This document shows, one piece after another, positions 17,704 to 33,798 of a DNA stretch of 64,000 nucleotides; the first letter of the stretch is position 1, and every line of letters starts with the position of its first letter. This DNA comes from Actinomycetota bacterium. GTDB taxonomy: Bacteria > Actinomycetota > Actinomycetes > S36-B12. The position numbers and the translations under genes were made by a program. The notes below the pieces were generated by a model. That model did not search any database. It was not told where the DNA came from and worked only from the letters and a program-made list of their open reading frames with translations. The DNA lies in assembly GCA_027729805.1 (NCBI GenBank), contig JAQCEO010000002.1, positions 33,987 to 97,986 of the forward strand, read 5' to 3'.

Positions 17704-17704
17704 C

Positions 17705-18424: not shown

Positions 18425-18538
18425 ATGTTCCTCGGTTCACCACAGGAAGACGCAGCCCTGCAGTCCCCACCAGCAGACAGCCAAGTTGAGACATTAATTG
18501 AGGATATCTCGATCGATGGCATGTGCGGCGTCTACTAG
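18425..18538 (+). CDS. mftA: Mycofactocin precursor peptide
   Basis: C-terminus ...VETLIEDISIDGMCGVY* carries the canonical IDGMCGVY. ATG 18425 is preceded by GAAGGGAG. The 77-aa ORF-track call (18305) is an over-extension. Confidence 0.9.
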   Translation: MFLGSPQEDAALQSPPADSQVETLIEDISIDGMCGVY

Positions 18539-18557
18539 ATAGGAAGCCAGAAACCTC

Positions 18558-18857
18558 ATGGTGATGCTGGATGAGCCGTGGCAGTTGTCTCCAGACGTTG
18601 CGCTTCGCACTGAGCCCTTCGGTGCCCTCGCCTACAACTTCCGGACTAGGCGGCTTACCTTTCTCAAGCGACCTGAACTCGTCGCGGTGATCGCGGGCCT
18701 GAGCGCCGGCGCCGATGTGCGCGAGGCGCTGCAGGCAGCGAGTGTTCCTCCCGTCCAATGGTGCGCTTACCTAAAGGCCCTGGAGTCACTGGCGGCGGCG
18801 GGCACGATCCAACCGCGAGGCTGTATACAACCACAACAACAGGAGGCTGCATCGTGA
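18558..18857 (+). CDS. mftB: Mycofactocin precursor-binding chaperone (RRE protein)
   Basis: PWQLSPDVALRTEPFGALAYNFRTRRLTFLK pattern; 99 aa; its stop overlaps the mftC GTG. Confidence 0.85.
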   Translation: MVMLDEPWQLSPDVALRTEPFGALAYNFRTRRLTFLKRPELVAVIAGLSAGADVREALQAASVPPVQWCAYLKALESLAAAGTIQPRGCIQPQQQEAAS

Positions 18858-20104
18858 CGATTCTTGATGAGCGAATCAGCACCGCTCCGGCAGTCCGTCC
18901 TACCGGAGGATCGCTGCTCGACCAGTTCGAGTTGGGCCTCAACGCGCCGATCTGCCTGACCTGGGAACTGACCTACGCGTGCAACCTCGCTTGCGTCCAC
19001 TGCCTGTCATCATCGGGAAAGCGCGACCCCCGCGAGCTCAGCACCGAACAGTGCGAGGCGGTGATTGACGAATTGCAGCGCATGCAGGTTTTCTACGTGA
19101 ACATCGGCGGGGGCGAGCCCACGATCCGACCGGACTTTTGGCACCTGATCCAGTACGCCGTTTCGCATCAGGTCGGCGTGAAGTTCTCAACCAACGGTGT
19201 GCGCGTCACACCTGAGCGGGCGGCCTTCCTTGCCTCGACCGACTACGTAGACGTGCAGATCTCACTCGACGGCGCCACCGCCGAGGTTAATGACCGCGTG
19301 CGCGGTACCGGCTCTTATGACATGGCGATCCGCGCGCTGGATAACCTGTCCGTGTCCGGTTTCAAGGACGCGAAGATCTCGGTCGTAGTTACCCGCGAGA
19401 ACGTTAGCCAACTCGACGAGTTCAAGGCGCTGGCCGACCGCCACGGTGCCACGCTGCGACTAACCCGGCTGCGTCCCTCGGGCCGCGGCGCGGACGTGTG
19501 GGATGACCTGCATCCGACGGCCGCGCAGCAGCGTGATCTCTACAACTGGCTGATACAGGCTGGCCCGAACGTCCTCACTGGCGACTCGTTCTTCCACCTC
19601 GCCGGATTCGGCGAACCGCTGCCCGGCCTCAACCTCTGCGGCGCCGGCCGCGTGGTGTGCCTCATCGATCCCATCGGCGATGTGTACGCGTGCCCCTTCG
19701 CCATCCACGACAACTTCCTCGCCGGCAACATCACCGCGCTCGGCGGCTTCCAGAACGTCTGGCAGAACTCCGAGTTGTTCGCCGACCTGCGCTCCCCGCA
19801 AACTTCCGGCGCATGCACCAAGTGCCAGCATTTCGATTCGTGCCGTGGTGGTTGCATGGCCGCGAAGTTTTTCACCGGCCTGCCGCTCGACGGCCCGGAC
19901 CCCGAATGCGTCCAAGGATTCAGCGAGGACGCCCTACTGCAGGTTGGCCGCACGATCCCCGCCGCGAGCCAGGACCACTCGAAGCCCAGCAAGCGGGGGC
20001 AGGAGCCGGTGTTTCTGCAATTGGGAATGCTCAGTCCAGCGACACCCCCGGTGCACGGGTGCGCCCAGAGTCCTATCGCTGGCCGCGACCCAGGCGCGAG
20101 CTAA
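18854..20104 (+). CDS. mftC: Mycofactocin radical SAM/SPASM maturase
   Basis: Radical SAM CNLACVHC; C-terminal SPASM cysteines CTKCQHFDSCRGGC. GTG 18854 overlaps the mftB stop as GTGA. The ORF-track start at 18758 overlaps mftB. Confidence 0.9.
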   Translation: MTILDERISTAPAVRPTGGSLLDQFELGLNAPICLTWELTYACNLACVHCLSSSGKRDPRELSTEQCEAVIDELQRMQVFYVNIGGGEPTIRPDFWHLIQYAVSHQVGVKFSTNGVRVTPERAAFLASTDYVDVQISLDGATAEVNDRVRGTGSYDMAIRALDNLSVSGFKDAKISVVVTRENVSQLDEFKALADRHGATLRLTRLRPSGRGADVWDDLHPTAAQQRDLYNWLIQAGPNVLTGDSFFHLAGFGEPLPGLNLCGAGRVVCLIDPIGDVYACPFAIHDNFLAGNITALGGFQNVWQNSELFADLRSPQTSGACTKCQHFDSCRGGCMAAKFFTGLPLDGPDPECVQGFSEDALLQVGRTIPAASQDHSKPSKRGQEPVFLQLGMLSPATPPVHGCAQSPIAGRDPGAS

Positions 20105-20124
20105 CTCAGTGCGAAAGGTTTACC

Positions 20125-21312
20125 GTGGCAAATCCGTGGTTTGAGTCCGTCGCCGAGGCGCAGCGCCGCGCCAAGAAGCGGCTGCCCTCCTCGGTCTATA
20201 GCGCGCTGCTCGCTGGCAATGAGAAGGGCACCTCCTACGACGACAACATCACCGCATTCTCCAAGATCGAACTGGCTCCCCACGTCGCCGGCCTACACTC
20301 CGAGCGCGAGTTGTCCACGACTTTCATGGGCCATGCCATCTCGTTCCCCGTCGTCACCTCGCCGACGGGAGTCCAGTGCGTCCACCCCGACGGCGAGATC
20401 GCGATCGCCCGCGCAACCGCCGCCCGTGGCACGGCAATGGTGCTTGGCTCATTCGGCAGCAAGCCCCTCGCTGACGTCATCGCCGCGAACCCGCTCACCT
20501 TCTTCCAGATTTATTGGATGGGGACCCGCGATCAGATGCTCGAGCGCCTCGCCTATGCCAGGGATCTCGGAGCCAAGGGCATTATGTTGACCCTCGACTG
20601 GTCCTTCGCTACTGGACGCGACTGGGGCAGCCCCGTTATCCCCGAGCGGATCGGCTTCAAGACCATGGTGCAGTTCGCCCCGCAGGTCATCGTCAAGCCC
20701 AAGTGGCTCGTGTCATTCGCTCGGGGTGGGGGCATTCCAGACCTCCGCACCCCGAACCTGAAGAATGAGGCGGGGGCGACCCCCACCTTCTTCGGTGCCT
20801 ACTACGAGTGGATGCAGACACCACCGTGCACGTGGGAGGACCTCGCGTGGCTGCGCTCGCAGTGGGAAGGTCCGTTCATGCTTAAGGGCATTTGCCGCGT
20901 CGACGACGCGAAGCGGACGGTAGACGCGGGCTTCTCGAGCCTGTCGGTCTCTAACCACGGCGGCAACAACATCGACTCCACGCCCGCACCCATTCGCGTC
21001 CTCCCGTCGATCGTCCGGGCCGTAGGCGACCAAGTCGAGATCGTCATGGATGGCGGGATTCGCAGAGGAAGCGACGTCGTCAAGGCAGTCGCGCTCGGCG
21101 CCAAGGCCGTCATGATCGGACGCCCGTACCTCTGGGCACTAGCAGCGAACGGGCAGGCCGGAGTCGAGAACGTCCTAGACATCCTCCGCAGCGGCATCGA
21201 CTCCACCGTCTACGCGCTCGGGCACAAATCGATCCGCGACCTGAGCCCCGCGGACGTCTTCGTCCCTGCGGGATTCACGCGAACGCTCGGTGCCGACGGG
21301 AGCAAACAATGA
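20125..21312 (+). CDS. mftD: FMN-dependent alpha-hydroxyacid-oxidase-like pre-mycofactocin synthase
   Basis: LldD-type motifs (VSNHGGNNID, DGGIRRGSDV). In-frame GTG 20125 follows GAAAGG. The 468-nt 5' extension in the ORF track overlaps mftC. Confidence 0.9.
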   Translation: MANPWFESVAEAQRRAKKRLPSSVYSALLAGNEKGTSYDDNITAFSKIELAPHVAGLHSERELSTTFMGHAISFPVVTSPTGVQCVHPDGEIAIARATAARGTAMVLGSFGSKPLADVIAANPLTFFQIYWMGTRDQMLERLAYARDLGAKGIMLTLDWSFATGRDWGSPVIPERIGFKTMVQFAPQVIVKPKWLVSFARGGGIPDLRTPNLKNEAGATPTFFGAYYEWMQTPPCTWEDLAWLRSQWEGPFMLKGICRVDDAKRTVDAGFSSLSVSNHGGNNIDSTPAPIRVLPSIVRAVGDQVEIVMDGGIRRGSDVVKAVALGAKAVMIGRPYLWALAANGQAGVENVLDILRSGIDSTVYALGHKSIRDLSPADVFVPAGFTRTLGADGSKQ

Positions 21313-22043
21313 CCAAGGTGCATCGGCTGGCCACCATGACGTGGGACGATGTCCCACCGAAGTCACTCGTACTCGTTCCCATGGGCTCGACCGAGCAGCA
21401 CGGCCCGCACTTGCCGTTCGAGACAGACACGCTCATTGCCACCGCAGTCGCGGAGAGCATAGCTAAGGCCATGAACGGTGAAGGAGTGGATGTCATCCTC
21501 GCGCCCGCCATCGCTTACGGCGCGAGTGGCGAGCACCAAGAGTTTCCCGGCACCATCTCCATCGGCCATGACGCACTGCGGATGCAGATCGTCGAGCTCG
21601 TGCGCTCGCTCTCCACCTGGGCGGGGCGCATCGTGTTCGTCAACGGCCACGGTGGCAACGTCAAGTCTCTCGCCTCGGCGATCGAGGAGATGCGCCAAGA
21701 GCAGCATGACGTTGCGTGGCTGGCATGCATCTTGGAGTCGGCCGGCGATGCCCACGCCGGATCGATCGAAACCTCAGTCATGCTCCACCTCGCACCGGAG
21801 CGGGTCCGCATGGACAAGGCTGAGCCCGGGCAACTCGCCTCTCTCAAGGAGATTCTCCCGTTGCTGATGTCGTCTGGAGTCAAAGCGGCATCGCCGTCCG
21901 GAGTATTGGGAGACCCCACCACCGCGGCCGCTGACATTGGCCAACAGCTGGTGGACCAACTCGTCGCCAGCGGCGCAGCACTCATCACCTACGCAGCCGT
22001 CGACGACCAAGGACGACTCGTCTCAAGCGAACTTGCCTCGTGA
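21309..22043 (+). CDS. mftE: Creatininase-family mycofactocin peptidase
   Basis: GSTEQHGPHLP metal-binding motif; 244 aa; ATGA overlap with mftD. Confidence 0.85.
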   Translation: MTKVHRLATMTWDDVPPKSLVLVPMGSTEQHGPHLPFETDTLIATAVAESIAKAMNGEGVDVILAPAIAYGASGEHQEFPGTISIGHDALRMQIVELVRSLSTWAGRIVFVNGHGGNVKSLASAIEEMRQEQHDVAWLACILESAGDAHAGSIETSVMLHLAPERVRMDKAEPGQLASLKEILPLLMSSGVKAASPSGVLGDPTTAAADIGQQLVDQLVASGAALITYAAVDDQGRLVSSELAS

Positions 22044-22858
22044 TGACAACCGAAACCGATCCTCCACGAGTCGCCCTAGTTACCGGCGCAGCCAACGGCA
22101 TCGGTCGCGCCACCGTCGACATCCTCGTTCAGCAGGGGTTCCGTGTCGTGGCCGTGGACTCCTGCGCCGGGTCGGGAACCGAACGTGGCGAGGGGGTCGA
22201 CTACGCTCTCGCCACGCCGGATCAACTGCTCAGCCTTGAGTCCGAGTACCCCGGCCTCGTACATGCGCGGATTGTCGATGTCCGTGATGCCAGAGCACTT
22301 GCCGCCGCAGGTAAATTCGCCGTCGACGAGTTCGGCAGGCTCGACGCCGCGGTCGCCGCCGCCGCAGTCATCGTTGGTGGTTATCCGGTCTGGGAGACAC
22401 CCGAGTCGCACTTGCGCACGCTACTTGACGTCGACGTCGTCGGAGTCTGGAACACCGCATCAGCGGCAGTACCGCTTATGCTCACCGGCCCGGACCCACA
22501 GGGCTGCCGTTTCGTCGCCGTGGCATCTGCCGCCGGAACTCGCGGCCTCTTCCATCTAGCCGGATATACCGTTGCCAAGCACGCTGTGGTCGGCCTAGTG
22601 CGGGGCCTTGCCGCCGACCTCATCGGCACCGGTGTCACTGCGGTCGCGGTCTCTCCCGGCTCAACCGACACCGACATGTTGCGAGCCACAGCAGGCCTAT
22701 ACGGCCTCGACCAAATTAACGAGTTCAGCTCCTCGCAACTGTTACGACGTCTCCTGCGGCCCGAGGAAATCGCTGCGACGATCGCCTTTTGCTGTTCAAA
22801 GGAAGGAGCTGTACTGAACGGATCGATAGTAGACGCCTCCGGTGGTTTCACAGCGTGA
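22040..22858 (+). CDS. Mycofactocin-coupled short-chain dehydrogenase/reductase (subfamily with a long insert after the Rossmann motif)
   Basis: ALVTGAANGIGRAT, catalytic YTVAKHA; ATGA-coupled to mftE. Confidence 0.8.
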   Translation: MMTTETDPPRVALVTGAANGIGRATVDILVQQGFRVVAVDSCAGSGTERGEGVDYALATPDQLLSLESEYPGLVHARIVDVRDARALAAAGKFAVDEFGRLDAAVAAAAVIVGGYPVWETPESHLRTLLDVDVVGVWNTASAAVPLMLTGPDPQGCRFVAVASAAGTRGLFHLAGYTVAKHAVVGLVRGLAADLIGTGVTAVAVSPGSTDTDMLRATAGLYGLDQINEFSSSQLLRRLLRPEEIAATIAFCCSKEGAVLNGSIVDASGGFTA

Positions 22859-23267
22859 AAAGAGGAGGTGCGTCCTTTGGTGATGCAGCCCTCCGCCCCG
22901 AGCATTGCCGGGGCTGACCGGACGGCTTAGCGGCCGAATCCCGACTCGAGCGCAAGTGTGAGATGAAGGGGAAGGAGTACTCCAGTTGCGAGTTCTCCGC
23001 TTTGGATTTGGGCCCGCAGGAAGGGGTCAGGTCCTAGCTGTCTCTTCGCCAGGTGATTGACAATTGGTGCATTGGATGGCACATTGTCCCACGGCTCAGC
23101 TCGGGGGAATGACTCTCCCTGATCGCCGTCCAGCAGATCGAAACGGAGGCTCGCGTGAGCGCACCAGCCAACGCTGCATACACCGAGCGGCTGGCCTATG
23201 CACCCAAAGACCCACTCGTCCTGTTCGCGTGTACCAGAGGGCAGGGTCTAGAAGCGGTGCTGTACCC

Positions 23268-24095
23268 GTGAGCCTCGAAGGCAAGGTGGCCGTCGTCACC
23301 GGGGCCGCTCGCGGGCAGGGTCGCAGCCACGCGGTGCGTCTGGCCGAGGAGGGCGCGGATGTCATCGCGATCGACATCTGCCGGCCCATATCCACCGTCC
23401 CCTATCCACTGGCTACGGCGGGCGACCTGCAGGAAACAGCGGAGCGGGTGCGCGCTTTGGGTCGCCGAATTCTTGCCGTGGAGGTAGATGTTCGCGACTC
23501 CCTAGCGCTAAACGCGGCGATTGCTGAGGGGCTTGCATTGCTCGGCCGCATTGACATCGTTGTGGCGAACGCTGGCATCATCAGTTTTGCTCCGGTGGAG
23601 GACATCACGGGGGAGATGTGGGACGAGGTCATCGACGTCAATCTCAAGGGTGTTTGGCATACCTGTAAGGCAGCAATTCCGGCGATGAAGGCGGGCGGGG
23701 AGGGTGGTTCTATAGTCATCATCTCCTCGGTCGCCGGAGTGAAAGCCTGGGAGAATCAGGCCCACTATGTGGCGAGCAAGCACGGCGTCATCGGGCTCAT
23801 GCGCACGATGGCACGTGAACTTGCCCCCCACCGCATTCGTGTCAACACCGTGCATCCCACCAGTGTGCTGACCGACATGATCGACAATGACGGCCTGTAT
23901 CGCCTCTTTCGTCCCGACCACCCAAATCCCACAATGGCAGATGTCGAGCCGCTGTTTTGGCAGCAGAACAGCCTGCCGCTGCCTTGGGTGGAGCCGGTTG
24001 ACATTAGCAATGCAGTTGTCTTCTTGGCATCTGATCAGGCAAGGTATATAACGGGCATTATGTTGCCGGTGGATGCCGGTACCTTGCTTAAGTAG
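23268..24095 (+). CDS. Mycofactocin-coupled SDR, carveol-dehydrogenase-like subfamily
   Basis: AVVTGAARGQGRSHAVRLAEEGADVIAIDIC...YPLAT..DL matches the SDR subfamily reported to co-occur with mft loci; YVASKHG. In-frame GTG 23268 is preferred over the ORF start at 23064. Confidence 0.85.
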   Translation: MSLEGKVAVVTGAARGQGRSHAVRLAEEGADVIAIDICRPISTVPYPLATAGDLQETAERVRALGRRILAVEVDVRDSLALNAAIAEGLALLGRIDIVVANAGIISFAPVEDITGEMWDEVIDVNLKGVWHTCKAAIPAMKAGGEGGSIVIISSVAGVKAWENQAHYVASKHGVIGLMRTMARELAPHRIRVNTVHPTSVLTDMIDNDGLYRLFRPDHPNPTMADVEPLFWQQNSLPLPWVEPVDISNAVVFLASDQARYITGIMLPVDAGTLLK

Positions 24096-24181
24096 TGATG
24101 TGACCCCCGTCTTGGTCCGGGCTCACGTTAGTTGTTGCTGGGTTGTGTTGATGGTTTCGCACTTGAATTCGGGTTGCCCCG

Positions 24182-24460
24182 CTCGGAACGACGCTGGGGA
24201 AGTCCTTGCATGTCAATCTCAGACATGATGGCGACAACGAGTCGATGGTTGGCAATTAGAACCCAGTTTCAATCAGCACAGCGGCCTGCACCCGCAGGTA
24301 ACCGGACCAATTTGCCTACTGGCGAACTTCAGAGTTGAAAGCTGGGATAGAAGGGTTCATGAACAGATACAACAACCACCGACACTATCCCAAGATTGGG
24401 CAGACCAGCCCAATCAATTTTGAGATATCGTTAACCACCAAAGCGGCGAAAGCCAAATAA
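24182..24460 (+). mobile_element. Decayed 3' remnant of an IS3-type (rve integrase) transposase gene
   Basis: My translation of one frame: ...[68 protein letters not shown]...*. The YN..R.H..(I/L)G..(S/T)P..FE tail is typical of IS3 OrfB C-termini. In-frame stops occur at 24257 and 24299, and no N-terminal part is present. Confidence 0.5.
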
Positions 24461-24580
24461 CCCCGTGTCTACTTTTACCAGGGAACCTCAGAGGACGACA
24501 ACCGTGATCGCCGCTGCGATGCGCCAGGCTATGCGAGGAGTCGGCATGTGATTGTGGGGGAGTGTGACCAGTGGGTGGTT

Positions 24581-25156
24581 CTACTTCTGCATTCGCGAGT
24601 AGATGACGTCGGCCATGGCGCTGATGAAGAGGAGGAGTCCGACTGTGAAGATTTGGAGGAAGGGCGAGACGCCCATGAGGTTGAGTCCGTTGCGGAGTAG
24701 GGCGAGGAATATGACGCCTAGAGCCGTGCCGATGATGGTTCCGCGTCCTCCGAAGAGGCTGGTGCCGCCGATGATGACGGCGGCGATGACGTCGAGTTCT
24801 GAGCCGTAGCCCGCGTTGGTGGTTGCGGCGTTGAGTTTAGCGGCGAGGATGACACCGCTGAGGGCTGCGACTGCGCCGGAGGCGGAGTAGAGGATGAGTT
24901 TGACGCGTCGGACGTTGATTCCGGCGCGGCGTGCGACATCTTCGTTGGTGCCGATGGCGATGACGTATCGGCCGAACCGGGTTTGCCGTAAGACGAGCCC
25001 GCAGGCGAGGAAGATGAGGATGGAGAGGAGTACGGGGACGGGGATGCCGAGGAAGTCGCCTGTCCCGAAGTAGCGGTAGAGGTCGGGGAAATCGCTGGCG
25101 ATAAACAATTTTCGATGGCCTTTAACACGAGGCGGGTGCCGAGGCCCTTGAGTCAA
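24581..25156 (-). pseudogene. 5'-truncated ABC sugar (ribose/xylose-type) permease gene
   Basis: Only the C-terminal ~175 aa of an RbsC-like permease is present (TRFGRYVIAIGTNEDVARRAGINV...GSELDVIAAVIIGGTSLFGGRGTI...). The first ~17 residues of the ORF are non-homologous, and the ~150-aa N-terminal half, ATPase and binding protein are all absent. Confidence 0.7.
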
Positions 25157-25204
25157 AGTGCCGGCAACAGCTAGCCGGTAACATTACTGAATCTCCTCGC
25201 GTGC

Positions 25205-25233
25205 TTGACAAATGCCAGAAGGGCGCCTAAATT
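25205..25233 (+). promoter_or_regulatory. Sigma-70-like promoter TTGACA-17 nt-TAAATT upstream of the first transketolase operon
   Basis: TTGACA at 25205-25210, 17-nt spacer, TAAATT at 25228-25233. It is followed by TTGTCAACAA (25249-25258), a copy of the recurring island motif. Confidence 0.4.
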
Positions 25234-25294
25234 CCAGATGACCGTATTTTGTCAACAATATAGAGAATGTCGGGAATTGGGCGGTGTTGACTTT

Positions 25295-26122
25295 GTGAGT
25301 TTTTCTGAGTTTGAGGCCGTGAGTCGAAGGGTCCGGCGACTTGTCGTGGATACTGTGTATGGCGCTGGTGCTGGGCATATTGGGGGCCCACTATCGGCCG
25401 TCGACATCCTCACCGTGCTCTATCACCACGAAATGCGAATCTCGGTGAGCGATCCCGAGTGGCCAGATCGCGATCGCTTCATCTTGTCCAAGGGGCACTC
25501 CAGCCCTGCCCTCTACTCGGTTCTTGCCTCGTGCGGGTTCATCCCGGAGGAGGAGTTGTGGACTTTCGACGAGGTCGGTAGCCGACTCCAGGCGCATCCG
25601 GACATGCACAAGACGCCAGGTGTGGATATGTCCACGGGCTCGCTGGGTCAAGGCTTATCGGCGGGCGCGGGAATGGCGCTAGCCGCCAAGTTGGCGTCCC
25701 AGCCCTTTCGCGTGTACGTCCTGCTTGGTGACGGTGAGTGCCAGGAGGGTCAGGTGTGGGAAGCCGCGATGTTCGCCCAGCGGTTCGCACTCGACAACCT
25801 GGTTGCCGTCGTGGACTGGAACGGTCTCCAGCAGGTCGGGTGGGATCTCAGCGATCAGCCTTCCCGGGAGGACACACTCCCCACGGCGGTTGAGAAGTGG
25901 CGTGCCTTCGGATGGCATACCGCCGTCGTTGATGGTCACGACATCGGGGCGCTAGTCAATGCCTTCGACGCTGCGCGGAAGGTCACGGGTCAGCCGTGTG
26001 TGATTCTGGCCACGACGACGAAGGGAAAGGGAATCTCATTCATGGAGAACGACAACGCCTGGCATTCCCGGATCATCACCGAAGATGACTATGCGGCGAT
26101 CTGCGCGGAGCTGGCGCCGTGA
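25295..26122 (+). CDS. Split transketolase, N-terminal (TPP/PP-domain) subunit, copy 1
   Basis: GAGHIGGPLS and GDGECQEGQVWEA TPP-binding motifs. In-frame GTG 25295 gives ~275 aa; the ORF-track start at 25205 coincides with the promoter-like hexamer. Confidence 0.85.
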   Translation: MSFSEFEAVSRRVRRLVVDTVYGAGAGHIGGPLSAVDILTVLYHHEMRISVSDPEWPDRDRFILSKGHSSPALYSVLASCGFIPEEELWTFDEVGSRLQAHPDMHKTPGVDMSTGSLGQGLSAGAGMALAAKLASQPFRVYVLLGDGECQEGQVWEAAMFAQRFALDNLVAVVDWNGLQQVGWDLSDQPSREDTLPTAVEKWRAFGWHTAVVDGHDIGALVNAFDAARKVTGQPCVILATTTKGKGISFMENDNAWHSRIITEDDYAAICAELAP

Positions 26123-27066
26123 ACGGCACCGTGCAGGCTGAAGCAACACGTGATGCCTTCGGGGCGGAATTGCTTGACTGCGCGAAGGCCGACCCTTCGA
26201 TCGTCGTGGTCGACGCTGACCTCGGCAATGCAATCGGCCTGGTCCAGTTCCGGTCGACATTTCCGGCTCGGTACATTCAAGTCGGTATCGCCGAGCAGAA
26301 CGCCGTAGGTGTTGCAGCTGGGCTGGCCGCCTGCGGCTTCCGCCCTGTGCTGACCTCCTTCGCTGCCTTCGTGGCATGCCGCTGCCTGGACCAGATCAGG
26401 GTTTCCGTCGCCCAAACTGGTCTGCCGGTTGTGCTGCTCGGCGGCCACTCGGGCCTCCTGGCGGGGCGACTCGGCAAGACCCACGTGACCATGGAGGATC
26501 TATCGATCCTGCGCTCCCTCCCTGGCCTCGCCTGTGTCGCACCAGCGGATGGCGTCGAGATGCGCAAGGCGTTGCGAGCCTGCCTCGCCTACCCCGGTCC
26601 TACCTACCTCCGGGCTACCCGGGATGCGACTCCAACCATTTTCACGTCTGACCACGAGTTCGCGATCGGCAGGGCGTACATGCTCCGGGAAGGGGCCGAC
26701 ATCTGCTTGCTGTCGAGCGGGACGATGACACCGCGAGCTGCGCAGGTCGCTACCCTCCTGTCTGATCTCGGGTATTCAACAGCCTTGGTACATGTGCCCA
26801 CCCTGAAGCCGCTGGATATCCAGACGGTTGCCACTGCCACTCGTGGCAAGCGGCTCGTAGTCACGTACGAGGACCATTCGATTCTGGGTGGCCTCGGGTC
26901 CGCAGTCGCTGAAGTCCTCTTCGAGGGGGATCGACCCCCTCTCCTTCGGATCGGTACGGAGGACACCTACATCGACTCGGGGAAGAATGATGACCTCTTG
27001 GAGTTCTATAGGTTGGAACCAGAAGTTGTGACCGGCAGGATAGTGAACGCACTGGAGACGCAATGA
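26119..27066 (+). CDS. Split transketolase, C-terminal (Pyr + C-domain) subunit, copy 1
   Basis: ATRDAFGAELL...VVVDADLGN...IQVGIAEQNAVGVAAGLA; GTGA overlap with the N subunit. Confidence 0.85.
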   Translation: MNGTVQAEATRDAFGAELLDCAKADPSIVVVDADLGNAIGLVQFRSTFPARYIQVGIAEQNAVGVAAGLAACGFRPVLTSFAAFVACRCLDQIRVSVAQTGLPVVLLGGHSGLLAGRLGKTHVTMEDLSILRSLPGLACVAPADGVEMRKALRACLAYPGPTYLRATRDATPTIFTSDHEFAIGRAYMLREGADICLLSSGTMTPRAAQVATLLSDLGYSTALVHVPTLKPLDIQTVATATRGKRLVVTYEDHSILGGLGSAVAEVLFEGDRPPLLRIGTEDTYIDSGKNDDLLEFYRLEPEVVTGRIVNALETQ

Positions 27067-28262
27067 ACGCACCAACTTCGCGTGCCATGACAGCGGACCG
27101 GGCCTACGACCCGCTTTCCGAGCAGTCACACCTCGACCCGTATCCCACGTATTCGTGGTTGCGTGAGCATGCGCCCGTCTACTACTGCGCGGCCCGCGAC
27201 GTGTGGGTGTTGTCCCGGTACGAGGACGTCCGCGCCGCACTGCGGGACTGGAACACGTTCACCAGTACGGGTGGTGTGGAACTCGCCGATTACGTCGGGT
27301 TCTTCGGTGCGGGCAACTGTCTCGAGATGGATCCACCCCGTCACGATGTATTACGCAAGGTGTTCACTACGCGGTTCAGCACCAAGGCGATCAAGACCTA
27401 CGAGTCGATGGTGCGCGCCACCACGGTCGAACTCCTTGATGGCATCGAGGGCGCTTCCGAGGTCGATCTCGCGAGCGTGCTGACCAACCGTTTGCCGGTG
27501 CTCACGATCTGCCGGCTGCTGGGTCTTCCCGAAGCTGATATGCCTTGGGCGGTCGAAGCATCGATCGACATGATGACCCGCCCTCCGGATGAAGTCGGAC
27601 CCTCAGCTGCTGCGCAACGACTCCGTGCGCAATTGGTGGAGTTGTTCCTGCGCGAGGTGGACACGCGGTTGTCGGGTGTCTGGAGCGATGATGTGCTCTC
27701 CGACATGGCCCACGCGATCCAGGACGGCACGATGAATCGAGACGAAGTCCAGGGGGCCACGCTGCTGTTGATTGCGGCGGGTATGGAGACCACGTCGAGC
27801 CTGATGGGCAATATCGTGTCCGCCGTGGCCTCGGGGCAGGTGGATCCGCAGGCGTTGCTCGATGACGCGGGGGACCTGCGCCCGCCGGCGATCGATGAGT
27901 TCCTGCGCTACGACTCACCCGTGCAGTGGCTGTGCCGGGTGGCGACCGCGGATGCCGAGGTGCGCGGTGTTCGCATCCCGGCCGGCGCGCGCGTGCTGAT
28001 GCTCTATGCCTCGGCGAACCGAGACCCCGAGGTCTTCACGCACCCCGATGTCATCAATCTGGATCGGGATGGTTCGCGTAACCTGTCCTTCGGTGAGGGA
28101 ATCCACTTCTGCCTCGGGATGCCGTTGGCGAAGCTCGAGACCCGGATCGGACTCGGTGAGTTATTTGCGCGGTATCCACGCATCATCGCCACCGATGAGC
28201 CGCGGCGTTATCCGTCGCACATCATCCGCGGATTCGATTCGATCCCGGTGCGTGTGGCATGA
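27063..28262 (+). CDS. Cytochrome P450
   Basis: Heme-thiolate motif FGEGIHFCLGMPLA, I-helix AAGMETTS, EFLR (ExxR); ATGA overlap with the transketolase C subunit. Confidence 0.9.
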   Translation: MNAPTSRAMTADRAYDPLSEQSHLDPYPTYSWLREHAPVYYCAARDVWVLSRYEDVRAALRDWNTFTSTGGVELADYVGFFGAGNCLEMDPPRHDVLRKVFTTRFSTKAIKTYESMVRATTVELLDGIEGASEVDLASVLTNRLPVLTICRLLGLPEADMPWAVEASIDMMTRPPDEVGPSAAAQRLRAQLVELFLREVDTRLSGVWSDDVLSDMAHAIQDGTMNRDEVQGATLLLIAAGMETTSSLMGNIVSAVASGQVDPQALLDDAGDLRPPAIDEFLRYDSPVQWLCRVATADAEVRGVRIPAGARVLMLYASANRDPEVFTHPDVINLDRDGSRNLSFGEGIHFCLGMPLAKLETRIGLGELFARYPRIIATDEPRRYPSHIIRGFDSIPVRVA

Positions 28263-28323
28263 GCAATCCACGATTCCGGGGAATCCACTTGCGGAGCAAT
28301 TAACAACAACCAAGGAGGAAGTT

Positions 28324-28863
28324 ATGGCGGGAGCCAAAGTAATTACCCTAGACCACGTCGCGGTCATGGTGTCGGATCTGGAGCGCTCTTTGCGCTTCTA
28401 CCACGATCTGCTCGGTTTGGACTTCGTCGCGTCGGAGGAACACGACGACCGTCCGAACGGCGGCCCGGTCTCGACCATGACGGCATTTCCTGTTGTGCAA
28501 ATACGCGAGTACCGACTCCGGCCTGCTGGTGGCGTCAATGGCCATGCCCGCATCGAGGGCCAAGGGCTCACCGTCGATCTCATCGAGTGGATCACACCAG
28601 AGAGCCCGGTGGGTAGATACCCAATCAACCAGGTGCCAAGCTCGCACATCTGCTTCGGCGTGGAGAGCGTGCCGGCCACGTACGAGATGCTGGTCGAGGC
28701 CGGCGTGGAAGTGGTTTCACCACCCGTGCGGTTCGACGGTGAGGGCGAGTGGCATGTGCTGTTCTTCTACGACCCGGACGGCAACCTGATCGAACTCAAC
28801 GAGATCGGCACCGGCACGCAGCATGAGCACAAGTCGCAGATTCACGAGTGGAGCCGATACTAG
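28324..28863 (+). CDS. VOC (glyoxalase/bleomycin-resistance/extradiol dioxygenase) family protein
   Basis: LDHVAVMVSDLERSLRFYHDLLGL...FFYDPDGNLIEL; ATG 28324 follows AAGGAGGAAG. The 5' part of the ORF-track call overlaps the P450 gene. Confidence 0.8.
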   Translation: MAGAKVITLDHVAVMVSDLERSLRFYHDLLGLDFVASEEHDDRPNGGPVSTMTAFPVVQIREYRLRPAGGVNGHARIEGQGLTVDLIEWITPESPVGRYPINQVPSSHICFGVESVPATYEMLVEAGVEVVSPPVRFDGEGEWHVLFFYDPDGNLIELNEIGTGTQHEHKSQIHEWSRY

Positions 28864-28868
28864 ACCTT

Positions 28869-29909
28869 ATGACGCTTTCATCGATCGGAATCGTGGGGAC
28901 GGGGGAGAACGCCCACGATCACGCCGCTGCGTGCCAAGTGATCCCGGGTGCCGAACTCGTGGCGATTTGCGATATCTCCGCGGATGCGCTGGCGCGATTC
29001 GGTGACGAGTTCGGCTGTCCGCACCGGTATGAGTCCCTTGATGCGATGCTGGGCGCGCACGAACTTGATGTCCTCGTCATCTCTACTTGGGGTCCCCACC
29101 ACGCTCCGCTAGCGCTCCAGGCCATGGACACCGGGCGGGTGCGGGCCCTGTTGGTGGAAAAACCGATGGCCATGGATGCCGCCGAGGCCGCCGCGATGGT
29201 CGCCCGCGCGCAGGCTACGGGAACGCTGCTGGTCGAGGGGTTCAAGTGGCGGTATGACCCCCAGCACCGTGCCGCATTCGATGCGCTGGCTGCGGGGCGG
29301 ATCGGTGCGGTGCGCTCGGTGCACGGGGCCTTCTCCGCCCCGCTCGCCGGCCGCATGGGGGAGGGCAACTGGCGCTTCGACCCCGCTCGGGGTGGGGGGT
29401 CGCTCTATGACACCGCCGGTTACCTGATCCATTTCGCCCGCGCCGCGATGGGTGGTGACCCGGTCGCCGCACTGGCGATCGCACCGGATTCGAGTGCGGA
29501 TGGCGCGGAATTGAGTGCGGCGATAATTTTGGAGTTCACTGAGGGTCGGGTGGCGTTGCTGCAGTCAAGTTACGCCCAAGCTTACCACCAGGCAGTGACG
29601 GTGATTGGGACGCAAGGGTGGATGCGCTACACGAGCCCGTTTGATTCCCGCAGCAGCCGTGATGCGGAGTTCGTCGCCACACCACCGCTGGCTGCTCGGA
29701 TCGATATCCACGGCAACGACTTCGACCACGAGGTCCTCGAGTTCCCGCCGTGCAACCAGTTCGTGGCCCAGTTGGAAGCCGTACTCGCGGCGGCACGGAC
29801 CCGCGGCCAAGTGCCGGCATCCGGTGCCTTCGCCGTGGGTAGCATGGCCACGCTCGATGCCCTGCGGGCATCTATACAAAGTGGTCGGAAGAAGGAGGTA
29901 CGCGTATGA
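28869..29909 (+). CDS. Gfo/Idh/MocA-family oxidoreductase
   Basis: N-terminal Rossmann IGIVGTGENAHDHAAA and the LVEKPMA motif. Confidence 0.8.
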   Translation: MTLSSIGIVGTGENAHDHAAACQVIPGAELVAICDISADALARFGDEFGCPHRYESLDAMLGAHELDVLVISTWGPHHAPLALQAMDTGRVRALLVEKPMAMDAAEAAAMVARAQATGTLLVEGFKWRYDPQHRAAFDALAAGRIGAVRSVHGAFSAPLAGRMGEGNWRFDPARGGGSLYDTAGYLIHFARAAMGGDPVAALAIAPDSSADGAELSAAIILEFTEGRVALLQSSYAQAYHQAVTVIGTQGWMRYTSPFDSRSSRDAEFVATPPLAARIDIHGNDFDHEVLEFPPCNQFVAQLEAVLAAARTRGQVPASGAFAVGSMATLDALRASIQSGRKKEVRV

Positions 29910-30589
29910 GTCCCGATGCCGAGATACGATTGAATAGCAAACAGCGTTCCTTGCGCGATCAACTGACCGATTCCCTGCGCGAGCGCATCATGTCCTCCGA
30001 CCTGTCGCGGGGCGAGCGCCTCGATCTGCCCCGGATGGCGCGCGACTACGAGGTCAGTCTGATCCCATTGCGCGAGGCACTCATCGTGCTTGAGTCCGAG
30101 GGTGTGGTCACCTCGCGTGCGCGGCGTGGGGTGTTTGTCTCCGAGTTGTCCGCAGAGGATCTTATTGAGATTTACCAGGTGCGCGAGGCGATTGAGGTGC
30201 AGGCGGTCGAGTTGCTGATCGCCTCCGGTGATGCCGCGGCGGACACCGCCCTGTCCAATGCGCTGCAGGAGTTGGCTGCGTGCTGGAAGCGCGGCGACCA
30301 CGACGCAGCCGTCCGTGTCGATGTGCAATTGCACTGCCTAATCTCGGTGATATCGGGCAATCTGCGCCTTGCGCAAATGGCTAAGATGATGGCCAACCAG
30401 ACGCTGCTCCACCTCATGCCGGTCGAGGAATCACAGGTCGCGCTGCGCCGGCGACCCGCAGACCACTTCCACACAGACATCGTGCGAGCGATCGTGCAGC
30501 GCGATGTCGAATCGGCGCGTCAGGCTGTTCGCGATCACTACTCATGGTCGCGCGCGCGGCTTTCCGATGCTGGACTCGGGGCTTGGTAG
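29906..30589 (+). CDS. GntR-family (FadR/FCD subfamily) transcriptional regulator
   Basis: wHTH LPRMARDYEVSLIPLREALIVLESEGVVTSRARRGVFV plus an alpha-helical FCD-like C-terminal domain; ATGA overlap with the upstream gene. Confidence 0.85.
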   Translation: MSPDAEIRLNSKQRSLRDQLTDSLRERIMSSDLSRGERLDLPRMARDYEVSLIPLREALIVLESEGVVTSRARRGVFVSELSAEDLIEIYQVREAIEVQAVELLIASGDAAADTALSNALQELAACWKRGDHDAAVRVDVQLHCLISVISGNLRLAQMAKMMANQTLLHLMPVEESQVALRRRPADHFHTDIVRAIVQRDVESARQAVRDHYSWSRARLSDAGLGAW

Positions 30590-30732
30590 CAAGCAGTAGT
30601 CTCCTATCTGGCGTTGGTCGAGTTACTCGGGGATCCCTTGTCTGGACCCGTGCGGCGTTGGCAGCGGTCATCTCGGCTCCACGGGTCATGGTGGCGCGGG
30701 GCGGCCGCGACGCAGACTGGTCTGGATCTCTG

Positions 30733-30761
30733 TTGACAATCTATTATTAAAGTATTACGGT
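30733..30761 (+). promoter_or_regulatory. Promoter-like TTGACA-17 nt-TACGGT in an AT-rich patch upstream of the fused E1 gene
   Basis: TGTTGACAAT at 30731-30740 followed by the unusually AT-rich CTATTATTAAAGTAT, then TACGGT at 30756-30761 (TANNNT-type -10). Confidence 0.4.
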
Positions 30762-30813
30762 GCAGGATCAGTCCATCACTGAAAGCGCTGCCCCTTGACC
30801 AATGGGAATGTGA

Positions 30814-30975
30814 ATGTTAAATCCTCGAGGAGGTACCGCCGTCACAACGGGCGGTGCCCGCGGGCTCGACGAGGGCTATGACAACTGGCGCCGGGGGCAG
30901 GAGATCAACGTCAACGGTCCGTTCCTTTGGATCAACACGGTCGCACCAGCCATGGTTCCCGAAGCGGTCACATGA
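30814..30975 (+). CDS. Candidate 53-codon small ORF translationally coupled (ATGA) to the E1 gene
   Basis: My translation: MLNPRGGTAVTTGGARGLDEGYDNWRRGQEINVNGPFLWINTVAPAMVPEAVT*. Its stop TGA (30973-30975) overlaps ATG 30972. By my count ~37 of 53 third positions are G/C. It is below the ORF-track size cut-off, I recognise no homolog, and the SD (GGGAA) is weak. Confidence 0.3.
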   Translation: MLNPRGGTAVTTGGARGLDEGYDNWRRGQEINVNGPFLWINTVAPAMVPEAVT

Positions 30976-33152
30976 GCATCGAAGCGGCATCATTATTTGC
31001 CTACCAAAACCTGCCGTGGCGGTCCTATCCGAACCTGAGTGCGGCCACTGCCTCACTTGACGGCCTGACTCCCAACGCTGCGGCCTTGATGCTGTACCAG
31101 TTGTTGTTGATTCGGGCTTTTGAGCAGTGGCTGGTGGACAACGAGACCTTGGTGCATGGCCCGTTGCATTCGAGTATCGGTCAGGAGGCGGTGGCGGTGG
31201 GGGCGATCGCCGCGCTGCAGCGCCAGGATCAGATTGCCTCCACGCACCGGGCCCACCATCATGTGTTGGCGCGTGTGGTTGCTAGTGCCGCGCATGATGC
31301 CGGGGGTTTCGCCCCCGCGAGTTCAGTTCCCACGCCGTCGCTGGTGTGTGAAGCGATCCTTAAGACGCTGGCTGAGATTCTCGGACTCCGGCAGGGGTTT
31401 GCCGGCGGTCGTGGTGGTTCTATGCACCTCGGGTGTATCGACGCCGGGGTACTGGGCACGAGTGCGATCGTCGGCGGCGGCATCCCGATGGCCACGGGGG
31501 CGGCTTTCGCGTTCGCCCAACGCGGCTCGGGGGGAGTGGCCCTCGCTTTCTTTGGGGATGGTGCCGCATCAATCGGTGCGTTGCATGAGGCCATGGCGAT
31601 GTCGCGGGTGATGTCTTTGCCGATGATCTTCCTGGTGGAGAATAACCTTTACTCGGTGGCCACCACGGTGGCCGAGACCGTCGGGTTCCCGGATATCGCA
31701 ATCCGAGCCGCGGGCCACGACATGCCGGGCATCATCGTGGACGGCATGGACCCGCTCGCGGTGCGCGCGGGGGTGGTGCAGGCGCGGGCGCACGCGGCTG
31801 CCGGTCACGGGCCGGTGCTGATTGAGGCGAAGACGTACCGCTATCTGCACCAATCTGGGCGCCTACCCGGGAGCGACTACCGCTACCGCACCAAGGAGGA
31901 GGAGAGCCAGTGGCTCGGGCGTGATCCGATCGATCATTTCCCGGCGACTCTTATTGCTGCTGGACTCGTTGATGCTGCGGGGTTGGCGACCATCCGTGCC
32001 CGAATCGAGTCTGATCTTGCGGTAGCGATTGAGACCGTCGTCGAAGTTGGTGCTGAGGGGCCCCGCATCCGCGAGGATGCCTGGCCCGATCCCAGCGACG
32101 CTGTCCGCGGGGTGCGGGCAATGGGCAGCGCGCCGGCTCAGGTCTTAGAGCCGGTGGCGGCCGGGGAGAGCGTGACCTATCAGCAGGCCATCTCGATGGT
32201 GCTGGAGCGGGCCATGCAGCGGGACCCGGAGGTGTTCGTGATCGGTGAGGAGGTTGGTCACCTGCGCGGTGGCGCGTATGGGACCACCCGGCATGTGTGC
32301 CGAAACTTCCCCGAGCGCGTGTTTAGTTCCCCGATCTCGGAGAACGGTTTTAGTGGGCTGGCCCTTGGGTCGGCGCTGATGGGGATGCGACCGGTTGTGG
32401 AGTTGATGTTCCCCGATTTCGCCCTTGAGGCCGCCGATCAATTGTTCAACCACGTGCCGAAGGTCCGGCACATGTTCGGTGGCGACGTGGACGTACCTCT
32501 CCTCGTGCGTACCCGCACGGCGCAGGGCCGGGGCTTTGGCCCGCAACATAGCTGCGACCCCGCCGCGTTGTTCGCGCTCTTCCCAGGGTGGCGGATCATC
32601 GCCCCCTCGACCCCGGCGGACTACATAGGACTGTTCAACTCCGCGATCACCGGCACCGACCCGGTCTTGATAATCGAGCACTACCGACTTTGGACCATGG
32701 AAGGGCCGATCCCAGATCTAGATGCCCAGATTCCGCTGGGCAAGGGACGTATCGTGCGCCCGGGACGCGACCTGACTGTACTCACCTGGTCGCACCCGGT
32801 GCACCGAGTCAATGCGATCGCGCAGGACCTTGCACTGGAGGGAATCGAGGCGGAGGTGATCGACCTACGCACCATCGATCCCCTCGGCATCGACTGGGAA
32901 CTGGTCAGCGAGTCGGTGCGGCGCACCGGAGCAGTTGCCATCGTTGAAGACGCAACCGCCTCCCACGCGCTCGGACCCCGCATCTCACAGGTCATCCACG
33001 AACGCCACTTCGCGGACCTCCGCGTCCCCGTGCAGGTGATAACAGGACTCGACGTCCCCACCCCCGTCTCCCGCGTACTCGAGGAGTATGTACTGCTCTC
33101 TGATACAGCAATTGCTGGGGCGCTTCGGAATCTGGGGATTTGTGGTGACTGA
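30972..33152 (+). CDS. Fused 2-oxoacid dehydrogenase E1 component (alpha and beta subunits in one polypeptide), TPP-dependent
   Basis: Alpha part: HSSIGQEAVAVGA, FFGDGAASIGALHEAMAMS...LVENNLYS. Beta part: FVIGEEVG..GGAYGTT...SPISENGFSGLALGSALMGMRPVVELMF. About 726 aa from ATG 30972. Confidence 0.85.
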   Translation: MSIEAASLFAYQNLPWRSYPNLSAATASLDGLTPNAAALMLYQLLLIRAFEQWLVDNETLVHGPLHSSIGQEAVAVGAIAALQRQDQIASTHRAHHHVLARVVASAAHDAGGFAPASSVPTPSLVCEAILKTLAEILGLRQGFAGGRGGSMHLGCIDAGVLGTSAIVGGGIPMATGAAFAFAQRGSGGVALAFFGDGAASIGALHEAMAMSRVMSLPMIFLVENNLYSVATTVAETVGFPDIAIRAAGHDMPGIIVDGMDPLAVRAGVVQARAHAAAGHGPVLIEAKTYRYLHQSGRLPGSDYRYRTKEEESQWLGRDPIDHFPATLIAAGLVDAAGLATIRARIESDLAVAIETVVEVGAEGPRIREDAWPDPSDAVRGVRAMGSAPAQVLEPVAAGESVTYQQAISMVLERAMQRDPEVFVIGEEVGHLRGGAYGTTRHVCRNFPERVFSSPISENGFSGLALGSALMGMRPVVELMFPDFALEAADQLFNHVPKVRHMFGGDVDVPLLVRTRTAQGRGFGPQHSCDPAALFALFPGWRIIAPSTPADYIGLFNSAITGTDPVLIIEHYRLWTMEGPIPDLDAQIPLGKGRIVRPGRDLTVLTWSHPVHRVNAIAQDLALEGIEAEVIDLRTIDPLGIDWELVSESVRRTGAVAIVEDATASHALGPRISQVIHERHFADLRVPVQVITGLDVPTPVSRVLEEYVLLSDTAIAGALRNLGICGD

Positions 33153-33798
33153 CTCTTTTCTGGAGCACCGATCCCTTCGCGAACTGATTGCCCAGGATCT
33201 ACGGAGCAGGATCCTCGCCAAGGACATCGCGCCGGGGGACAAACTCGATGTCGCCGGCATCGCTAGCCAGTACGGGGTGAGTTCTGGTTCTGTGCGGGAG
33301 GCGGCCTTCCTGCTTGAATCCGAGGGGCTAGTCGTCATCAACCCCCGGCGCGGAATCACCGTTCGAGTCGTCACCCCGACCGATCTTCTCGAGATCTACG
33401 CGGTCCGCGAGGTGATCGATGTCGCCGCAGCGATTCTTGTTGCCGCAGCACATAACGAGGAACAACTCAGCAGGCTCAGAGCGGGACAAGAGCGCGTCGA
33501 GCAGTGTTGGGACGAGGGCGGATTCGCATCGGGTCTAGCGGCGGACCTTAAATTCCATGTCCTGTTGGCTCAGCTGAGTGGGAACTCGCATCTGCTCTCG
33601 ATCTCGATGAACCTAACGGATCAGACACGTCTGCATCTGCAGCCGGTCCAGGCCGCGGATGCGTCGATCCGAAAACGTCCCCCCGAGCACCTGCATGCGT
33701 CAATGATCGACTCGATCGTTAGTGGGGACGAGGACTCGATCCGAGGGGCCTGTGCATCCCACTACGCCTTCTCGCGTACCCGTCTCACGCATGAGTGA
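33145..33798 (+). CDS. GntR-family (FCD) transcriptional regulator
   Basis: wHTH LDVAGIASQYGVSSGSVREAAFLLESEGLVVINPRRGITV. GTG 33145 overlaps the E1 stop (33150-33152). Confidence 0.85.
   Translation: MTDSFLEHRSLRELIAQDLRSRILAKDIAPGDKLDVAGIASQYGVSSGSVREAAFLLESEGLVVINPRRGITVRVVTPTDLLEIYAVREVIDVAAAILVAAAHNEEQLSRLRAGQERVEQCWDEGGFASGLAADLKFHVLLAQLSGNSHLLSISMNLTDQTRLHLQPVQAADASIRKRPPEHLHASMIDSIVSGDEDSIRGACASHYAFSRTRLTHE

Follow-up and report, generated by a model that had tools for sequence, protein, structure and literature searches.

A cytochrome P450 conserved beside a split transketolase-like enzyme in a putative catabolic module of uncultured Actinomycetota

The window analyzed here is a 64-kb chromosomal stretch of an Actinomycetota metagenome-assembled genome (MAG). 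It contains a six-gene operon in which a cytochrome P450 gene directly follows the two genes of a split transketolase (TK-N and TK-C). TK-N, TK-C, and the P450 were found in that order in six contexts with differing flanking genes, and the adjacency is not accidental. Judged from its sequence, the transketolase is a distinct clade defined by its linkage to the P450. We tentatively read the operon as a substrate-inducible, autoregulated, kinase-free catabolic module (probability of about 45%). In this reading the P450 would make or unmask a ketol or aldehyde that is handled by the transketolase, and the substrate would be a deoxy- or O-methyl cyclitol or sugar acid. The parts all come from known families; their combination, the clade of dedicated transketolases, and the regulon appear to be undescribed.

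The six genes are encoded on the forward strand. The first encodes the thiamine diphosphate (ThDP)-binding (N) subunit of the split transketolase (TK-N; 25295 to 26122; Pfam Transketolase_N, 1.5e-51). The second encodes the Pyr and C-terminal (C) subunit (TK-C; 26119 to 27066; Pfam Transket_pyr and Transketolase_C). They are followed by a class-I type cytochrome P450 (27063 to 28262; PF00067, 1.8e-26), a VOC protein of the glyoxalase-I/epimerase type (28324 to 28863; Pfam Glyoxalase, 6e-19), a Gfo/Idh/MocA NAD(P) oxidoreductase (28869 to 29909; assigned with Pfam), and a GntR regulator with an FCD domain (FadR subfamily; 29906 to 30589; Pfam GntR and FCD). Open reading frames (ORFs) and Pfam agree with the gene order given by an earlier, sequence-only reading of this DNA. 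Reading the sequence also bore out its overlaps and gaps. The 4-nt stop/start overlaps are GTGA at 26119, ATGA at 27063, and ATGA at 29906. The gap between the P450 and VOC genes (28263 to 28323) is 61 nt and contains a strong ribosome-binding site, AAGGAGGA. The gap between the VOC and Gfo genes (28864 to 28868) is 5 nt. GC and GC3 of the P450 gene equal those of its neighbors, and a recent insertion was rejected on that basis.

The TK-N ORF opens at a TTG at 25205, and one gene caller chose the ATG at 25238. Both starts were rejected because a conserved operator would then fall inside the coding sequence. The GTG at 25295 is favored, since the orthologues have a ribosome-binding site and the operator upstream of the start. 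The source records name the P450 (MDA3021217.1) "cytochrome P450" and TK-C (MDA3021216.1) "transketolase family protein." We found no curated family models, and no specific names in the source records, for the proteins of the module.

Contigs encoding homologues of the window P450 or TK-C are given L numbers below. The first context is the window itself together with L001, with the six genes TK-N, TK-C, P450, VOC, Gfo, and GntR. L002 and L003 (P450 79% identical) contain an IolE-like AP_endonuc_2 gene and then the same six genes in the same order. L176 (P450 78%) is like L002, and it also contains a divergent operon with a short-chain dehydrogenase/reductase (SDR), a lipoyl carrier, a Gfo, an Amidohydro_2, and a fused E1. 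In L004 and L087 to L089 (P450 61%), TK-N, TK-C, and the P450 are divergent from the VOC (two copies), Gfo, and GntR genes, and the flanks are housekeeping genes. L172 (P450 60%) is like this fourth context but has no adjacent GntR gene, and a sugar ABC transporter adjoins it. L086 (P450 45%) contains, in order, an SDR, a VOC, an ADC-family gene, a second VOC, an HpcH, TK-N, TK-C, the P450, a corrinoid protein, another HpcH, a 2-hydroxyacid dehydrogenase, and an F420 luciferase-like gene. Across the six contexts, identity to the window drops to about 59% for the transketolase and 45% for the P450. The VOC gene occurs in all six, and five of them also contain the Gfo gene.

In the window, L002, L087, and L172, the ATGA shared by the TK-C and P450 genes was read directly. 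The coordinates in L176 (6830 to 7777 and 7774 to 8961) imply that the two genes overlap by 4 nt there too. In L086 they do not overlap and are 41 nt apart, with a ribosome-binding site in the gap. Every member of the clade with a readable context has a P450 immediately downstream. The module is rare, with eleven 90%-identity TK-C clusters that hold about 47 member sequences in total. An "unknown 252-aa gene" in L004 and L088 (approximately 8295 to 9053) was rejected as an antisense miscall over the second of two VOC copies that share 89% identity. Three MAG contigs with P450s typical of aquatic Actinomycetota (L007, L010, and L012) are titled "Bifidobacterium breve" or "Bifidobacteriaceae," and these labels look wrong.

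The earlier reading had called the coupling unusual, and it had counted an adjacency unique to this genome as a sign of random insertion. The recurrence in six contexts shows that it is not unique, and the coupling is indeed unusual. Among the metagenome-contig matches listed for a profile of the TK-C clade, a P450 homologue was found in none of 80 other split-transketolase loci (34 to 53% identity). That scan gave no new linked loci, and its best listed match was 53% identical. Conversely, the clade transketolase was found in none of 80 genome loci with related P450s, among the matches listed for a P450 profile scan of genome contigs. In the literature we found no description of a P450 and transketolase pairing, and none of a Nanopelagicales P450 or an apulose transketolase that is relevant here.

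The closest solved chains were 6yak for TK-N (E 3.7e-83) and 6yaj for TK-C (E 3.4e-64) in a PDB sequence search. A search with TK-C showed a clear step. Eleven clusters (P0121 to P0131) are 56 to 96% identical to it, and all others are at most 53% identical. The motif GGH(S/A)G...GRLGKTH is present in 11 of these 11 clusters and in no others among the top 120 TK-C matches. In the window, the clade-specific GRLGKTH loop is encoded at 26464 to 26484 on the forward strand. In a search of 1.84 billion representatives with TK-C, the best match was 47% identical, and the clade had no representative of its own.

Residues were compared in an alignment with the Carboxydothermus (C.) hydrogenoformans split transketolase, human transketolase, and Escherichia coli DXS. 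Catalytic and pocket positions are given in the numbering of E. coli TktA. The ThDP/metal motif GDG...N is present, and the PP, Pyr, and TKC domains lie on two chains; LLGDGE...DWNG aligns with the human and C. hydrogenoformans enzymes. The P450-linked clade invariantly keeps the equivalents of H26, H66, H100, H261, and H473 and of the cofactor-activating Glu411. The catalytic motifs are GH, SKGH, AHP, and AWH in TK-N and GIAEQN and KTH in TK-C. All of the catalytic residues are thus kept, which points to normal ThDP ketol chemistry. The equivalents of R358, R520, and H461 (R11, R168, and H110), positions of the substrate phosphate site, are also invariant in the clade; the two arginines are the phosphate/carboxylate-binding ones. 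Both arginines are kept, which suggests a partner substrate with an anionic tail. The R520 of E. coli transketolase can bind a substrate carboxylate (PMC10787763).

The acceptor pocket is altered. The phosphate-contact Ser is replaced by Ala or Gly in the clade (NAIG versus NST/SKST). GRLGKTH aligns with GEDGASH of transketolase and GADGQTH of DXS, so that Asp469 (yeast Asp477) is replaced by Leu and the preceding Glu by Arg. The Leu is invariant in P0121 to P0131. Asp469 reads the 2-hydroxyl of the acceptor. It is a hallmark of canonical transketolase (EC 2.2.1.1), and its loss leads us to class the enzyme as transketolase-like and not as a canonical pentose-phosphate transketolase. The earlier description of the enzyme as a sugar-phosphate C2-transferase therefore needs amending; it is probably not an ordinary one, given its separate clade, the two changes in its pocket, and the kinase-free clusters of inositol or uronate type in which its nearest relatives are found. 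From these residues we infer that the partner lacks a hydroxyl, or is hydrophobic, at the position normally read by Asp469. An engineered D469T E. coli transketolase has a hydrophobic surface for nonpolar acceptors (PMC10787763).

The P450 encodes the Cys-ligand loop FGEGIHFCLG (amino acids 343 to 352) and the I-helix motif AGMETTS (amino acids 239 to 245), as the earlier reading had noted. F343 to G352, E279/R282 (ExxR), and A239 to T244 are invariant across 31 homologues, and the protein is a member of the P450 family. Its predicted model had a pLDDT of 88 and a TM score of about 0.85 to solved P450s (Foldseek versus the PDB). The structure comparison showed a generic class-I fold and did not point to a substrate. 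Its closest solved relatives share 25 to 33% identity with it, so none of them reaches the 40% identity that would place it in a named CYP family. No NCBIfam equivalog reaches its cutoff for the P450. The P450 of L086 is 45% identical to that of the window and is no closer to linked than to unlinked P450s; its closest long-contig relative is unlinked. In a neighbor-joining tree it falls outside the group that holds both linked and unlinked P450s. This placement makes the transketolase clade the constant partner, with two P450 lineages.

The earlier reading had found no ferredoxin or ferredoxin reductase nearby, and this holds across the window. A 4Fe-4S/3Fe-4S ferredoxin Cys motif was found in no real gene anywhere in the 64 kb, and no ferredoxin reductase was found among about 55 window ORFs scanned. 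A small ferredoxin gene in the gap at 30590 to 30926 was considered and rejected, as the ORFs there do not contain the Cys motif. The six orthologous loci likewise contain no cognate ferredoxin or reductase. Actinobacterial P450 genes commonly have no ferredoxin gene beside them, so its absence here is uninformative.

Nine VOC sequences share the metal ligands H11, E97 (Q in two orthologues), H116, and E166 of the window protein. This H/E(Q)/H/E pattern is that of glyoxalase I and epimerases, unlike the H/H/E of extradiol dioxygenases, and it places the protein in the glyoxalase-I/epimerase type of the VOC superfamily. The best NCBIfam match of the Gfo protein is IolG, far under the cutoff (97 versus 355). 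PDB sequence searches for the VOC and Gfo proteins returned generic family members only.

Further genes occur around the core in the sister contexts. The IolE-like dehydratase is directly before TK-N in L002 and L176. The accessory SDR is closest to hydroxycyclohexanecarboxylate dehydrogenases. The other accessory genes encode a free-standing lipoyl carrier, a fused E1, a lactonase-like amidohydrolase, HpcH aldolases, and a 2-hydroxyacid dehydrogenase. Across the six contexts, the core has no conserved companion gene for a kinase, carrier protein, synthase, or exporter. The gene set looks like one for catabolism of an oxygen-rich alicyclic or sugar-acid compound with a deoxy or methyl modification.

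The window itself encodes a fused E1 alpha-beta ThDP dehydrogenase component downstream of the operon (30972 to 33152, forward strand; Pfam E1_dh, Transket_pyr, and Transketolase_C). It is 85% identical to a 705-aa protein beside the module in L176, and it is probably an accessory gene of the same regulon in the window/L176 subclade. The L176 gene is at 3 to 2117. An 81-aa free-standing lipoyl carrier is encoded at L176 3819 to 4064, and one is present in L002 too. No E2 catalytic domain was seen nearby in L176 or L002, and the genes form an unusual minimal acetoin-dehydrogenase-like set. L086 encodes a 180-aa corrinoid (B12) methyl-carrier protein of the MtgC/MtbC type directly after the P450 (7995 to 8537). 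No methyltransferase gene was seen in the 11.6-kb L086 contig.

A TTGACA-17-TAAATT promoter precedes the operon (25205 to 25233, forward strand; consensus scan). The earlier reading had called it a good promoter. It is the sole consensus match in 24000 to 31500 and is conserved in orthologues; the match by itself is not above chance, as shuffled sequences average 1.9 matches. The upstream regions of five orthologous operons were aligned (the window, L002, L176, L087, and L172). Only three blocks are invariant among them: the TTGAC of the -35 box, the start of the -10 box (TA), and TGTCnACAAT. The last sits about 10 to 15 nt past the -10 box in all five promoters. In the window it is TTGTCAACAA at 25249 to 25258, 15 nt past the -10 box, and it is the sole exact match in 64 kb (0.29 expected). 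The predicted operator is TTTGTCAACAAT at 25248 to 25259 (forward strand), a half-palindrome of the type ATTGTCnACAAT, at approximately +8 to +19 from the expected transcription start. The operator of L002 is a perfect 16-bp palindrome, ATATTGTCGACAATAT.

The GntR gene encodes an N-terminal winged helix (PF00392, 3.5e-13) and a C-terminal FCD domain (PF07729, 8.8e-19). A putative operator of the palindromic t.GT..AC.a type of FCD/FadR repressors is thus present at the promoter of the regulator's own operon. The GntR gene is adjacent to the module in the window, L002, and L087, alongside the conserved operator. FCD regulators typically sense carboxylates. The promoter and operator are the only conserved upstream blocks in the five operons, which supports repression by the FCD-type GntR. 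Autoregulation by the terminal GntR through a site near the transcription start, as first suggested from the window alone, is therefore well supported by the phylogenetic footprint, and not proven.

Two similar sites are present elsewhere in the window. ATTGTCAACAGA (30729 to 30740, reverse strand) overlaps a TTGACA -35 box upstream of the fused E1 gene. A 19-bp inverted repeat, ATTGTTGA-TCG-TCAACAAT (38330 to 38348, forward strand), is upstream of a second VOC/Gfo/TK cluster that does not contain a P450. Operator-type sites with at most 2 mismatches gave 20 matches versus 9.0 ± 3.6 expected.

The next TK-C family accounts for 95 of the top 120 matches. It has a GKTGKTHQ loop and a Tyr for His461. 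In L090 (6170 to 12825) the genes are, in order, IolE-like, TK-N, TK-C, IolG, IolB, and IolD, and a sugar ABC transporter is present. Three of these proteins pass the curated NCBI cutoffs: IolG (418.9 versus 355), IolB (298.9 versus 205), and IolD (925.5 versus 715). Neither the IolC kinase nor the IolJ aldolase was found within 8 kb in L090. In L094 (5795 to 13034) the sister-clade transketolase is beside IolB and an aldehyde:ferredoxin oxidoreductase, and in L097 it is beside a UxaE-like epimerase, an AP_endonuc_2, and an alcohol dehydrogenase. This family appears to cleave nonphosphorylated ketol acids, such as 2-deoxy-5-keto-D-gluconate. Its iol operons may encode a kinase-free inositol catabolism in which the transketolase cleaves 2-deoxy-5-keto-gluconate. 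We found no description of a transketolase in inositol catabolism in the literature. The window does not contain an iol operon, as it encodes only the weakly IolG-like Gfo and IolB and IolD are absent from it; the latter two are present only in the sister-clade loci L090 and L094.

The best solved match for both subunits is the split transketolase of C. hydrogenoformans (6YAK/6YAJ; PMC7661550). It also has PP on one chain and Pyr and TKC on the other, and the ThDP/metal ligands and catalytic His residues are shared. It differs in its GEDGASHQ loop (GRLGKTHV here) and its phosphate-contact Ser (Ala here), and it has no P450 partner. The clade of the window also has an insertion of about 7 residues after DxNG. 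The best precedent for the proposed chemistry is SqwGH, the split 6-deoxy-6-sulfofructose transketolase of the sulfo-TK pathway. Its substrates are nonphosphorylated sugars with a sulfonate tail, including the 4-deoxy ketol 4-deoxy-4-sulfoerythrulose (PMC11659671). By description it is likewise a catabolic split transketolase that acts on anionic nonphosphorylated sugars. The sulfo-TK clusters differ in that they contain sulfoquinovose isomerase, SqwI, and sulfoacetaldehyde enzymes, with no P450, VOC, or Gfo, and nothing in the window points to sulfonates.

Canonical myo-inositol catabolism (IolG, IolE, IolD, IolB, IolC, and IolJ) resembles the module in three ways. The sister transketolase clade occurs in operons with threshold-passing IolG, IolB, and IolD, the IolE-like dehydratase precedes TK-N in L002 and L176, and the best family of the window Gfo is IolG. 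It differs in that the window does not encode IolB, IolD, IolC, or IolJ, and the Gfo scores well below its cutoff. We found no P450 or transketolase within the described myo-inositol pathway in the literature.

Two other systems contain an oxygenase. Marine Bacteroidota encode a P450 demethylase with a ferredoxin and a reductase in polysaccharide utilization loci. This 6-O-methyl-D-galactose demethylase is a sugar-catabolic P450 that removes a modification blocking downstream enzymes (PMC6292453, PMC10033563). It differs from the present case in that it is not known to include a transketolase and in that the window P450 has no redox partner in 64 kb. The window P450 is only about 30% identical to any solved P450. 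The rhizopine catabolism genes (moc) encode MocA, a Gfo-type dehydrogenase; MocC, which is IolE-like; and MocDEF, an oxygenase with its ferredoxin and reductase. They share with the module a Gfo dehydrogenase, an IolE-like enzyme, a regulator of the family, and an oxygenase, which demethylates an O-methyl cyclitol. They differ in that the oxygenase is not a P450 and no transketolase is known to take part.

In the catabolic reading, the FCD-type GntR would bind ATTGTCnACAAT just downstream of the -10 box and repress the operon until an organic-acid-like effector arrives. The Gfo enzyme would make a carbonyl, and the VOC protein would isomerize or epimerize next to it. The P450 would hydroxylate a methyl or methylene, or O-demethylate, so that an HOCH2-CO-CHOH ketol or the matching aldehyde becomes available. 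The transketolase would cleave or extend this ketol or aldehyde by normal ThDP chemistry, with a partner that has an anionic tail and with no kinase needed. The C2 unit and the remainder would feed central metabolism. From the gene context, the most likely class of substrate would be a deoxy- or O-methyl-modified cyclitol or sugar acid.

Several observations weigh against this reading. The nearest solved P450 relatives (CYP125, CYP109, CYP124, and EryF) act on lipophilic molecules and not on sugars. P450s at 51 to 57% identity, mostly labeled Nanopelagicales, stand without a transketolase within 10 kb. Other, unrelated split TK-like clades also have Leu at the Asp469 position, so it is not a unique signature. 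No transporter or kinase is conserved with the core, and the evidence names no single substrate. The island contains two FCD regulators (29906 to 30589 and 33088 to 33798), which leaves the pairing of regulator and operator unproven. The window copy has lost accessory genes and could be a reduced version of the module.

Other explanations were weighed against the same evidence. The P450 could be an O- or N-demethylase, with the transketolase acting like a dihydroxyacetone synthase that traps the formaldehyde as a C2+C1 ketol while the VOC and Gfo proteins finish detoxification or assimilation. Marine bacteria offer a precedent in the P450 demethylation of methyl sugars with dedicated formaldehyde assimilation (PMC6292453, PMC9400963). 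A pocket that no longer reads the acceptor 2-hydroxyl would suit formaldehyde, and the corrinoid methyl-carrier protein right after the P450 in L086 fits as well. Xylulose-5-P, the usual donor, carries the hydroxyl bound by Asp469, however, and the loss of this residue would argue against its use. No core gene handles the demethylated main product, close P450 relatives occur without a transketolase, and the sister clade is found with inositol and uronate catabolism and not with C1 metabolism. We consider this explanation unlikely. A biosynthetic cluster is likewise improbable. In such a cluster the TK-like enzyme would make an acyloin, a ketol, or a glycolyl unit from a nonhydroxylated aldehyde, and the P450 would tailor a secreted metabolite or signal. 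P450s are typical tailoring enzymes, and the glycolyl units of naphthyridinomycin and quinocarcin come from split TK-like enzymes. Replacement of Asp469 also favors nonpolar aldehyde acceptors in engineered enzymes (PMC10787763). The core is, however, conserved with no carrier protein, ligase, synthase, or exporter. The FCD repressor, the operator past the -10 box, and the nearby sugar ABC, Opp, and MFS genes are typical of catabolic operons, and the accessory genes are IolE-like, HpcH aldolase, lactonase-like, and dehydrogenase genes.

Chance would require an ordinary pentose-phosphate transketolase and an unrelated P450 that share an operon with no functional coupling. Bacterial operons sometimes mix unrelated genes, and this P450 family also occurs without a transketolase. 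Yet the gene order and the overlap are retained across six contexts whose flanks are rearranged, P450 linkage defines the transketolase clade, whose pocket is altered, and a P450 was present in none of the 80 control loci listed. Chance is therefore very improbable. It is also very doubtful that the transketolase and P450 work as a physical pair, in which the ThDP-bound dihydroxyethyl carbanion/enamine would be oxidized by, or donate electrons to, the heme enzyme. Such a pair would explain the stop/start overlap, the absent ferredoxin and reductase, and the two P450 lineages beside one transketolase clade. If true, it would be a P450 driven by a ThDP enzyme, a redox partnership of a kind not described so far.

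The six core genes are intact in the window, and relics flank the operon on both sides. Just upstream of the promoter is an ABC permease relic (24581 to 25156, reverse strand) that retains only the C-terminal half (BPD_transp_2 profile positions 121 to 267 of 269). No other part of this gene was found in the window. Downstream is a 31-aa SDR relic (30865 to 30957, forward strand), which is 77% identical to residues 96 to 125 of the L176 SDR (tblastn, E 7e-10). L176 and L002 have this SDR intact next to the module. The window contains neither the IolE-like gene nor the lipoyl carrier, Gfo, and amidohydrolase genes of the L176-type neighboring operon. The relics and the missing genes suggest that the window is a reduced version of an L176-type island, and the two relics are signs of deletions and an inversion by which a larger island shrank. 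Housekeeping genes are present on both sides in the window (ETF, LigA, GatAB, IlvD, ClpP/X, ValS, and MreBC).

Two other clusters were seen in the window. The first (16270 to 24095) is a complete mycofactocin locus and two SDR genes. It encodes an MftF-like GT2 (16270 to 17703, reverse strand), MftR, a TetR regulator with the MftR C-terminal domain (17705 to 18298, reverse strand), the MftA precursor ending in ...IDGMCGVY (ORF 18305 to 18538), MftB (18558 to 18857), the radical SAM/SPASM protein MftC (18758 to 20104), the FMN dehydrogenase MftD (ending at 21312), and MftE of the creatininase family (21309 to 22043). The SDR genes follow at 22040 to 22858 and 23064 to 24095. The second is the VOC/Gfo/TK cluster without a P450 (38394 to 45742). 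It contains a VOC, two Gfo genes, a 2-hydroxyacid dehydrogenase, TK-C and TK-N in reversed order, an enolase-superfamily dehydratase, and an SDR. One of the Gfo proteins is levoglucosan-dehydrogenase-like, below threshold. The TK-N of this cluster does not contain two catalytic histidines (GY for GH and ESP for GHP), and the TK-C loop is GITTPFRATHQ. Going by these residues, the pair may not be a true transketolase.

The module, found in a small group of uncultured Actinomycetota, points to a degradative pathway not yet described, whose substrate is probably a modified sugar acid or cyclitol. If the catabolic reading is correct, the module would be a new partnership in which P450 hydroxylation or demethylation feeds a carboxylate-type, kinase-free transketolase. 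It would also represent a new transketolase subfamily that has natural versions of the engineered Asp469 and Ser385 substitutions. With six genes, a defined promoter and operator, and a regulator of its own, the module is compact enough for a direct test by heterologous expression. Taken with the sister clade, whose iol operons have no IolC or IolJ nearby, it suggests that nonphosphorylated sugar acids may undergo ThDP-dependent ketol cleavage in a branch of carbohydrate and cyclitol catabolism that has been overlooked in uncultured Actinomycetota and Chloroflexota.

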